NCBI RefSeq assembly: GCF_006345805.1
Contig: NC_043013.1
Location: forward strand, 42,346,001 to 42,410,000
Length of the DNA: 64,000 nt
Origin: Octopus sinensis
Lineage: Eukaryota
Reading direction: 5' to 3'
Made by a program: the position numbers and the translations under genes. Positions 29,198 to 34,519 of this stretch are shown piece by piece (the first letter of the stretch is position 1; each line of letters begins with the position of its first letter). Below the pieces are notes generated by a model. It saw only the letters and a program-made list of their open reading frames with translations. It searched no databases and was not told the origin of the DNA.

Positions 29198-29268
<71 letters not shown>

Positions 29269-29797
29269 TACGACAGGCTTCTTTCAGTTTCTGTCTACCA
29301 AATCCACTCACAAGGCTTTGGTCGGCCCGAGGCTATAGTAGTAGACACTTCCCCAAGGTGCCACGCAGTGGGACTGAACCTGGAACAGTGTGGTTGGTAA
29401 GCAGGTTACTTACCACACAGCCACTCCTGCGCATATTTGTAAAAAAAGATTTTTTAAATTGGCGCTGGGTCCGCACCCTCTAAAAAAATTTCGTTCCTGG
29501 ACTTATGACCTGGGACTAAACAACAAACAGCAACATCAACAATATACAGCATTCTTGTTTATGATACGGCCACGCCACAAGCAACGAACTAAGCATAGAC
29601 ATGAATGTACAGACGCAAACCAGCTCACTCTGCAAGAAAAGGAAAACAAAAGAACAGCTCCTTATCAGTTGAAAGTGTAGAATTTTATTTGTTGCTCAGC
29701 AAAAGCAGATTCCACAAAAATTTCCTCTTGCCGTAGTAAGCAAATAATAATAATAATAATAATAACAACAACAAAAACTACAATAATAATAACGATA

Positions 29798-30195: not shown

Positions 30196-30486
30196 GTATG
30201 TATATATATATATATATACATGTGTCTATGTATGTTGAATGTATATACGTATATTATTATTTATCAGTATGACCTTGGTTTGCGTGAATTATATATATAT
30301 ATATTTACATACATTGTATATAAGAAAAAGGGACAGGCAAACACGTTGCTTGACCGCATACCGAAAAAATAGAAATAGCAGTCAAGAATGCTTATTTCTA
30401 TCAAAGTTGGACTCCGGCATGACAACCCTGTAATTCACATATGCAAACAGAAGGAATAGATAACGAAAACGAAGTCTGATGGTTAT

Positions 30487-30596
30487 CTGTGAACATCATG
30501 TTTCTGGATTATAAACATATTGAATATATATTCCATATTATTTTTGATATATATTTCATATACATTCATTATATTTCACATCCTTCTTCAGCACAG
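30487..30596 (-). ncRNA. type I hammerhead ribozyme with extended helix II
   Basis: CTGTG-CTGAAGA-A-GGAT...(~70 nt AT-rich)...ATCC-A-GAAA-CATGATG-TT-CACAG. Perfect 5-bp helix I and a GUU triplet. Confidence 0.7.
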
Positions 30597-31116
30597 CTTT
30601 CCATTGAAAAAGATTTATATCTAGATAAAAAATGCGACGTACCTCAACCTTCTGACCATGCGACATCAAAAATATTTGAAGAAAGTGAGCAAAAGTAAAC
30701 CTACATAGACTTTTGAATTCGTAATCTTCCCTCCAAAATTTTGCCATGCGCACTACAAAAATAGTTCCATAAGATGGGGAACCATTAGGTTGTCATAAGG
30801 GAGTGAAAAATCCATAGTAATTAATAATAAGAGTAATATTTCTATAAAGGCTTTTAAAAAAACCCCATTATTTACTGGTAGAATTCGGTATGTAAATATA
30901 GCCGATTAACCGGCAGGAACTTCTGTAAAGTTCAGTATATATATTGTATATAAGAAAAAGGGACAGGCAAACAGGTTGCTTGACCGCATACCGAAAAAAT
31001 AGAAATAGCAGTCAAGAATGCTTATTCTATCAAAGTTGGACTCCGGGCATGACAACCCTGTAATTCACATATGCAAACAGAAGGAATAGATAACGAAAAC
31101 GAAGTCTGATGGTTAT

Positions 31117-31226
31117 CTGTGAACTCATGTTTCTGGATTATAAACAATTGAATATATATTCCATATATATTTTTGATATATATTTCATATACTTGCATAT
31201 ATATTTCACATCCTTCTTCAGCACAG
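31117..31226 (-). ncRNA. type I hammerhead ribozyme, second copy
   Basis: Same motif as 30487-30596, with a 1-nt deletion in helix III (CATGAG). Confidence 0.6.
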
Positions 31227-31319
31227 CTTTCCATACACACATATATACTATACATATGTATATACATAAATATATATGTGTTATAGAAGTTCATATCTAT
31301 AAGATCAAAATGTAGTCTC

Positions 31320-31892: not shown

Positions 31893-31901
31893 ATATAATA
31901 T

Positions 31902-32294
31902 AAAATGAGGGGGTCTAGAAGACACCCACATGCCGAAATAGCAGTCGAAACTCTGACTATAAAACCACGTTAAATGTTCATATCGCACCATGAGGTAAAG
32001 CGGAGGGGCAAAACATACAAGCAAAAATTATTGAATAATTCAAGATCCAAGGATTTCTGGTTCTGCTTTAGATAAGCTTTACCGTCATCAATTGATATAT
32101 TCAATTGATGACGGTAAAGCTTATCTAAAGCAGAACCAGAAATCCTTGGATCTTGAATTATTCAATAATTTTTGCTTGTATGTTTTGCCCCTCCGCTTTA
32201 CCTCATGGTGCGATATGAACATTTAACGTGGTTTTATAGTCAGAGTTTCGACTGCTATTTCGGCATGTTGGTGTCTTCTAGACACCCTCATTTT
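31902..32294. repeat. long palindrome: 194-bp arms, 5-bp spacer
   Basis: 31902-32095 is the reverse complement of 32101-32294; I see two mismatches. Confidence 0.95.
32099..32158 (+). ncRNA. type I hammerhead ribozyme variant (mirror copy 32038-32095 on minus strand)
   Basis: ATTCAA-TTGATGA-C-GGT(aaaGCTTatctaAAGCaga)ACC-A-GAAA-TCCTTGGA-TC-TTGAAT. 6-bp helix I, C3>U. Confidence 0.7.
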
Positions 32295-32384
32295 TAATTG
32301 TTAAAAATTTTTTTACCTTTGTAAGGTATTTCTTTCATGCTGGCCACTTGATAATTTCGACACTTAAATATCGATATTATCCTC

Positions 32385-32848: not shown

Positions 32849-34519
32849 TATAGATAGAGATATATAGATATATAGATATATATATAAGAAAATAGAGATA
32901 AATCAATTAATAATTATTTATCTATTACAAAAATAGACATAATCTCTGACAGCTGTTTCGATTCAAACTTTAAAAATTAATTAGAATAATTCAAACATAA
33001 AGTTGAATATCCACATATATCAGCGTGCAAATATATGTGATTCGTGCCTTAGGGGATTTCTAATATGCCCATTTATTTTTCTATTCTTTATTATTTTATT
33101 ATATATTTTTGATGTATTTTTATTATATCTCTATACATATGAATGCTGTATTGTAGTTATATTATCCATACATTCAAAAATATATATACTTTTACCTATT
33201 ATATTACCCTTTCCATATTTATTTTGTATAACTAACCACATGGTTCCGGGTTCAGGCCCACTGCGTGGCATCTTGGGCAAGTGTCTTCTGCTATAGCCCC
33301 GGGCCGACCAATGCCTTGTGAGTGGATTTGGTAGACGGAAACTGAAAGAAGCCTGTCGTATATATGTATATATGTATATGTGTGTGTGTTTGCGTGTCTG
33401 TGTTTGTCCCCCTAGCATTGCATGACAACCGATGCTGGTGTGTTTACGTCCCCGTCACCTAGCGGTTCGGCAAAAAGAGACCGATAGAATAAGTACTGGG
33501 CTTACAAAGAATAAGTCCGGTTCGAGTTGCTCGACTAAAGGCGGTGCTCCAGCATGGCCGCAGTCAATGACTGAAACAAGTAAAGAGTAAAGAGTAAAGA
33601 GTATATATTTAGCACCTTATTACTTAATTTTCATAAGACTAAAGGCGGTGCTCCAGCATGGCCATAGTTAAATGACTGAAACAAGTAAAAGAAAGAGGGC
33701 ATACAGTGTACAGAATAATAAGGAAAGAATGCATACTTTTCTATATTAGGAAGCACTCCGTCGGTTACGACGATGAGGGTTCCGGTTGATCCGAATCAAC
33801 GGAACAGCCTGCTCGTGAAATTAACGTGTAAGTGGCTGAGCACTCCACAGACACGTGCACCCTTAACGTAGTTCTCGGGGATATTCAGCGTGACACAGAG
33901 AGTGACAAGGCCGGCCCCTTGAAATTCAGGTACAACGGAAACAGGAAGTAAGAGTGAGAGAAAGTTGTGGTGAAAGAGTACAGCAGCGATCACCACCATC
34001 CCCTGCCGGAGCCTCGTGGAGCTTTTAGGTGTTTTCACTCAATAAACACTCACAACGCCCAGTCTGGGAATCGAAACCGCGATCCTATGACCGCGAGTCC
34101 GCTGCCCTAACCACTGGGCCATGCGCCTCCACTTTTCTATATATATATATGAACAAGGACTCCCATCTTAAATTCCAGAAGATTTCGTTATGATGATAGT
34201 GATGGTGATTGATAAGTCCTGAAACTTATCTCATTGCTTTGCTCCCATCAGGTCTCAGCTGAAGGGGAAACAGAAGCAAAAAAAAAAAAAAAATAGCAGC
34301 AGCAGCAGCAACTGCAACGGCAAACAACACCACCGACATCAGCCGGGATGCCTCTACATGACTACTCGACATGCAAGAAATAACAGCTACATCCCACACA
34401 GTTACATTAGAAAGAACGAACATATTGAATAAAGTAGTAATCCACATTGCGTCCGAAAAAGTACAGAAAGGTCATGGTTGGAACGTGTTTAATCCATAAC
34501 AGCAACAACTGAAGCTGCC

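Follow-up and report, generated by a model that had tools for sequence, protein, structure and literature searches.

The window analysed here is a 64-kb stretch of the Octopus sinensis genome. A strict whole-window scan found only two type I hammerheads with a perfect 5-bp helix I, both on the minus strand, and local alignment showed that each of them opens one of two direct repeats (30936-31234 and 30306-30604) that are 299 bp long, lie at an offset of 630 and are identical in 291 of 302 columns. Most of the differences between the two repeats are one-base indels. Together they form an insertion that we assign to a dispersed repeat family, called family A below, with the following features:

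30306..31234, minus strand: whole insertion, 1.45 units of the ~642-nt non-coding hammerhead repeat (family A), 94% identical to other genomic copies, 5'-truncated, with TA-rich flanks and without an inverted arm
30936..31234, minus strand: upstream direct repeat, unit positions 1-304
30306..30604, minus strand: downstream direct repeat, ending at the second preferred 3' end of family A (unit position ~304)
31117..31226, minus strand: upstream type I hammerhead, cut predicted at 31122/31121 after GUU
30487..30596, minus strand: downstream type I hammerhead, cut predicted at 30492/30491 after GUU, near-palindromic helix III
31139..31209, minus strand: AT-rich hairpin insert of 71 nt capping the upstream helix II, about three 22-24-nt tandem units
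30510..30579, minus strand: AT-rich hairpin insert of 70 nt capping the downstream helix II, TRF period 23, 2.8 copies
30492..31121, minus strand: predicted cut-to-cut monomer, 630 nt, 32.7% GC
30975..31012 (second copy 30345-30382), minus strand: 38-nt block conserved between sister families, 355 exact pattern matches, control 0
30821..30840, minus strand: internal site matching the main 3' end of family A (unit position ~423), not an end in the window copy

Both hammerheads follow the order CUGUG / CUGAAGA / A-GGAU...AUCC-A / GAAA / C-AUGA(U)-G / UU, cut, CACAG, in which CUGUG/CACAG is helix I, CUGAAGA belongs to the core, GGAU/AUCC is helix II, and GAAA is followed by a short helix III. The conserved core bases are all present and pair 10.1-11.1 is mismatched, with an A opposite an A at the base of helix II. 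Both have GUU as the cleavage triplet, a detail that an earlier sequence-only reading of this DNA had overlooked. The other local claims of that reading held up well: its 292-bp repeats 630 bp apart with minus-strand hammerheads correspond to our 299-bp repeats, with its start at 30313 within 7 bp of ours; our motif scan put the predicted cuts at the very positions it had given; its ~70-nt AT-rich helix II insert and A-A mismatch were recovered; and its statements that the flanks are TA-rich and that there is no meaningful ORF agree with the TA-rich flanks of the window copy and with the absence of any ORF of at least 150 aa overlapping the locus. A search against Rfam gave no hammerhead match at E<=1, probably because the helix II insert makes it blind to the motif; its 33 matches were of microRNA type, lay on simple repeats and hairpins, and all stayed under the gathering scores.

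The exact hammerhead 20-mer has 175 matches in the genome, spread over many contigs, and none in the control; the first 100 matches listed fall into 66 sites by our own count, and about 115 sites are estimated in all. A search with the spacer recovered genomic copies that are 92-94% identical (40 scored), and its 1,214 first-look candidates overstate the size of the family when set against the exact 20-mer count. Insertions were analyzed at 83 loci, or 82 after dropping one of two contigs with the same array; these loci were picked for hammerhead or spacer content, so very short copies are under-sampled. The family A monomer has a median length of 642 nt (37 near-full units, range 598-652). 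In the window copy 22 of 922 columns are deleted, 12 of them in homopolymers, so the value of 630 partly reflects decay or assembly indels. The unit of 630 nt proposed from the sequence describes this copy and not the family, while the proposed retrozyme-like 1.5-mer is supported as 1.45 units of a dispersed hammerhead repeat, and the multimers that it foresaw in the genome exist at other loci, where the longest uninterrupted run reaches 2,936 bp. In a multimer locus, the longest stop-to-stop frame is 96 aa.

The unusual traits of the motif are traits of the family. Pair 10.1-11.1 is A·A in 114 of 115 motif matches (with its 5' A fixed by the search pattern), and GUU is found in 111 of the 115 motif matches of the sampled loci. 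By comparison, the loop III of the upstream window hammerhead, one U shorter than in family A, is found in 1 of these 115. Roughly three tandem units of 22-24 nt make up the helix II insert, and units have been gained or lost in single copies. Substitutions amount to 1.0% in the 3' half of the hammerhead versus 2.0-2.2% elsewhere; we do not rely on this apparent conservation within the family, which is weak and, in the 5' half, biased by the search pattern.

Two sister families are collinear with family A at ~62-72% identity and have their 3' ends at homologous sites. Family B (for example L165, L173 and L182) is an older sister retrozyme family with a ~548-nt unit, copies that are 82-90% alike and the same 3' end sites as family A; its hammerhead combines a helix I of AUCAUG/CAUGAU with a CGCG palindrome and a GUA site, and the basal pair of helix II is G-C or A·C. 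Family C (for example L190, L216 and L217) is young, with a 545-556-nt unit, 179 exact matches to its 21-mer, arrays of four or more units, and 3' ends at its positions 252 and 371-373; its hammerhead, with a GUU site, has AUAGCG/CGCUAU as helix I and C·A as the basal pair of helix II. Comparing A, B and C by hand along helix I, outward from the core, we found that both sides have changed in 4 of the 5 pairs and that no pair is broken. Because these changes are compensatory across three families, the hammerhead fold looks to be under selection. Three of the 16 sampled family C loci (L192, L204 and L216, one of them a 4-mer) form a U4C subfamily in which the core reads CCGAUGA and helix III is a perfect palindrome. 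A different hammerhead, whose helix II has A·A at its base and is extended by a long AT-rich stretch, lies in a short (TA)n-flanked insertion at L071:5528-5625, in which no similarity to families A-C was detected.

When 140-nt segments are folded locally, helices I and II form and the hammerhead fold comes within 1.5-2.7 kcal/mol of the ensemble. In the fold of a 941-nt transcript the upstream hammerhead carries a cost of 11 kcal/mol, and the minimum free energy structure of the circular monomer lacks helix I. The canonical features of fast type I motifs are missing, because pair 10.1-11.1 is unpaired and helix II carries an extension of ~70 nt in place of a short loop 2. GUU is cleaved more slowly than GUC, and the A·A mismatch, the GUU site and the AT insert, which run through the whole family, may slow cleavage. 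The near-palindromic helix III gives an intermolecular duplex of -9.6 kcal/mol in the predictions, which fits the dimer model described in PMC4209133. Several published cases bear on how such motifs behave. GUU is reported as a valid cleavage site (PMC3138052); a mispair at 10.1-11.1 is described as a ground for rejecting candidates, natural U·U cases exist, and a U4C change retains sufficient activity in a viroid in vivo (PMC3088659). Among predicted Xenopus retrozyme dimers, 1 of 9 is reported to have cleaved in vitro (bioRxiv 10.64898/2026.07.22.740005), and in an anole Penelope-like element the ribozyme mutants are reported to insert unimpaired, making cleavage dispensable in vitro (PMC11167929).

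The 3' ends of the copies cluster. Of the 137 outer 3' ends found at the 82 loci, unit positions 413-431 hold 72 and positions 284-306 hold 32, which gives two preferred ends ~120 nt apart; another 17 lie at 236-275 and 16 elsewhere, and 118 of the 137 adjoin TA-rich sequence. The TA-rich insert in helix II, with its four TATATA words, holds only 1 of the 137 ends, so microhomology to TA alone cannot set them. Arms on both strands (inverted arms) are present at 57 of 83 loci. Fifty-five loci have 3' ends on both sides; among them, exactly one end lies at 413-431 in 51 and both lie there in none, and 26 pair the 413-431 end with one at 284-306. In the window copy the 3' end is at the ~304 site and an inverted arm is lacking. 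The 5' starts are scattered: of 149, one falls within unit positions 110-120 versus 2.6 expected, so these starts show no pile-up at the cut site of the kind that cleaved linear templates should leave. In a single case (L015:1307-1505), which we do not count as evidence, an arm that ends at the predicted cleavage position joins an inverted piece and could be the footprint of a cleaved RNA end. Partial tandems, an inverted 5' copy, a tail and a bias to microsatellites are described for Penelope-like elements (bioRxiv 2021.04.23.441226), as is a tail bounded by two internal reverse transcription start sites (PMC11167929). The marks of family A, namely two internal 3' ends, inverted arms, 5' truncation and a microsatellite target, match this published anatomy, and family C carries them likewise.

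What served as template can be asked of the same copies. All 82 loci read through the cut site (partly by selection), which means that the template was ligated or uncut. Units of one locus resemble each other: pairs of polymorphic sites agree in 2144 of 2263 cases (94.7%) among units of one locus versus 62.2% between loci, and 24 locus-private substitutions are common to all units of their locus, including the window copy and several inverted arms. Such agreement would fit repeated copying of one molecule. Another 223 private substitutions are confined to one unit and 9 are partly shared, unit-to-unit gradients run through L156, and two variants alternate between units in L118 (G000:C3:147701400-147707100), a 4.5-unit array and the longest of the arrays by units, which suggests a dimer period. 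These patterns are not explained by a single monomer circle and would fit multimeric templates or later duplication. Between a circle and an uncut multimer as the template we see an even balance. Four of the 19 runs holding the stretch were examined, one from each of four studies; contigs of these runs (X1, X3, X6 and X12, taken to be RNA by guess) cover 30, 24, 30 and 14 of 30 bins, respectively, which is weak support for transcription of the unit. The X1 contigs bridge the cut site and join the end of the unit to its start, and the X6 contigs also contain this join. A 239-nt contig of X3 (record 14, depth 56) shares only the conserved block with the unit and then diverges, possibly representing a fourth related family.

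Altogether, the locus is very probably a 5'-truncated copy of a non-coding hammerhead repeat family, that is, a non-LTR retrozyme, likely spread by a Penelope-like reverse transcriptase and endonuclease. The motif, the family, the insertion anatomy and intact Penelope-like ORFs are all present in this one genome; the cleavage and the enzyme used are inferred. In the cycle that we propose, an array of more than one unit would be transcribed, and cleavage by the hammerheads would follow GUU, probably at a slow rate and in dimers formed via the near-palindromic helix III. A host ligase would close a circle of ~642 nt, and a borrowed protein of Penelope type would introduce nicks into both strands of a (TA)n target. 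Reverse transcription would then begin at two internal sites, ~190 and ~310 nt downstream of the cut site, and run across the hammerhead junction for a random distance of up to 4.5 units, producing direct arrays and head-to-head arms.

The strongest competitor, to which we give somewhat less than an even chance, keeps the element and the borrowed enzymes and makes the hammerhead a weakened passenger, the template being uncut multimers from a few source arrays, with no circle. A·A and GUU throughout the family, the spreading U4C subfamily of family C and the unit-specific variants of L156 and L118 are what would be expected of a passenger, as are the unimpaired insertion of the anole ribozyme mutants (PMC11167929) and the 8 of 9 Xenopus dimers that are reported as uncleaved (bioRxiv 10.64898/2026.07.22.740005). 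Against it, the compensatory changes in helix I and the helix III palindromes kept in three families imply selection on the fold, private variants are common to all units of a locus, repeated 5' truncation would presumably shorten the arrays if no circle regenerated them, and the U4C form is described as still active enough in a viroid in vivo (PMC3088659). A bolder version of the retrozyme reading, which we hold only tentatively and think rather unlikely, takes families A-C to be circular RNAs that are rolling-copied by a Penelope-type reverse transcriptase from two fixed internal starts 120 nt apart, with hammerheads tuned down by the mismatch at the helix II base, by GUU and, in one subfamily, by U4C, which would keep the circles closed and make cutting dependent on a dimer or the helper protein. 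If true, the genome copies would be a direct footprint of a retrozyme-Penelope partnership that has so far been argued from co-occurrence and pLTR similarity.

The same genome encodes intact proteins with reverse transcriptase and GIY-YIG domains in ORFs of 775 and 781 aa (RVT_1 just below cut-off), and 147 GIY-YIG matches were scored. We considered it improbable that the unit is itself the pseudo-LTR (pLTR) of such an autonomous Penelope-like element, with the copies representing 5'-truncated ends of it. Where copies are long, unit position 1 is preceded by unit position 642, for up to 4.5 units, rather than by an ORF; no ORF is joined to the unit in the 83 family A loci, and none was found in families B and C. 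A tblastn search with two Penelope-like families matched the flanks at 4 of the 83 loci, always outside the repeat. Among 50 sampled GIY-YIG stretches, some of them overlapping, out of 5029 first-look candidates, none shares pLTR sequence with the unit; the sole matches near them are nearby fragments of sister families, and the match at L053/L081 was rejected as a pLTR for this reason. Repeat pairs spaced 5.3-5.4 kb apart proved to stem from a segmental duplication in one case (L207) and from an inserted LINE in the other (L208). L063 and L070 represent an autonomous Penelope-like family whose region 3' of the ORF contains a hammerhead, with U·U as the basal pair of helix II, and runs out in (TA)n; by its target preference only, this family is a candidate helper. 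The 38-nt block conserved between the sister families is a candidate binding site for the helper enzyme.

There is next to no chance that the window locus is a private tandem duplication or an assembly artefact with a fortuitous likeness to hammerheads, the alternative that the sequence-only reading had named against itself: the two repeats do differ chiefly by one-base indels, which are typical of long-read consensus errors, but the 175 genomic hammerhead matches, the tandem units at many independent loci, the end-to-start junction in contigs from two independent public runs and the covariation across families speak against it.

Non-LTR retrozymes are described as tandem type I hammerhead repeats and as proposed users of Penelope-like enzymes (PMC7229834; bioRxiv 10.64898/2026.07.22.740005; PMC6765202). 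Family A shares with those of animals the non-coding tandem units with one type I hammerhead each, a GC content below 45%, the dispersal as monomers to multimers and the co-occurrence with Penelope-like elements (PMC7229834; bioRxiv 10.64898/2026.07.22.740005). It differs from the animal elements as described there in the ~70-nt AT hairpin on helix II, the A·A base and the GUU site, and from canonical motifs in having no evident contact between loop 1 and loop 2; in addition, it is known here from sequence, and its circle is a prediction. Its monomer of ~642 nt exceeds the typical ~300 bp given in PMC7229834, where circles range from 150 to over 1000 nt, so the earlier remark on unusual length is right in that respect, though the value is inside the 51-972 bp of reported family consensus lengths, whose mean is 650 bp in ray-finned fish (bioRxiv 10.64898/2026.07.22.740005). 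By these sequence features the locus qualifies as a new family of animal non-LTR retrozyme, and the family tables of that preprint could list related elements; the class of element is already known and the length is not exceptional.

Penelope-like elements with a C-terminal GIY-YIG domain (PMC4209133; PMC11167929; bioRxiv 2021.04.23.441226) have in common with family A the 5' truncation, the partial tandems, the inverted 5' arm and the microsatellite targets, as well as two internal 3' ends bounding a tail and, in their pLTRs, a type I hammerhead with a short palindromic helix III; unlike them, family A has no ORF and its tail is ~120 nt versus the 30-40 bp described there. The axolotl HHR_Amex2 (PMC7229834) likewise has a mismatch at the helix II base, U·U there versus A·A in family A and C·A in family C, and is reported to cleave weakly as a monomer and better as a dimer; it has a 350-bp unit and ~60,000 motifs versus about 175 exact matches here. 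Plant LTR retrozymes resemble the locus in having two hammerheads ~600-700 nt apart in direct repeats (PMC7229834; bioRxiv 10.64898/2026.07.22.740005). The features described as their own, type III hammerheads, GC above 55%, 4-bp target duplications and Gypsy-type ends, were not seen in family A, which has type I motifs, 32.7% GC and ends that merge into (TA)n.

In the open-access papers searched we found no description of a retrozyme from octopus or any other cephalopod, and none of the marks that retrozymes leave at insertion sites. Mobilisation of animal retrozymes by Penelope-like elements is proposed from shared ribozymes, co-occurrence and pLTR similarity (PMC7229834; bioRxiv 10.64898/2026.07.22.740005). 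In the young family A the insertion footprint itself is visible: start sites fixed at two internal positions, arms in inverted orientation and targets made of (TA)n, a pattern conserved across three sister families. The value of family A lies in being a clean test case for this mobilisation. The natural variants (A·A, C·A, A·C and G-C at 10.1-11.1, GUU and GUA sites, U4C, long and short helix II) can be used to ask whether cleavage matters to spread. Two other repeats lie close to the insertion in the window: a MITE-like 199-bp inverted repeat, 98% complementary with a 5-nt loop (31897-32299), and an inverted 149-bp pair of a common dispersed repeat, 91% alike (29250-29398 and 33231-33379).
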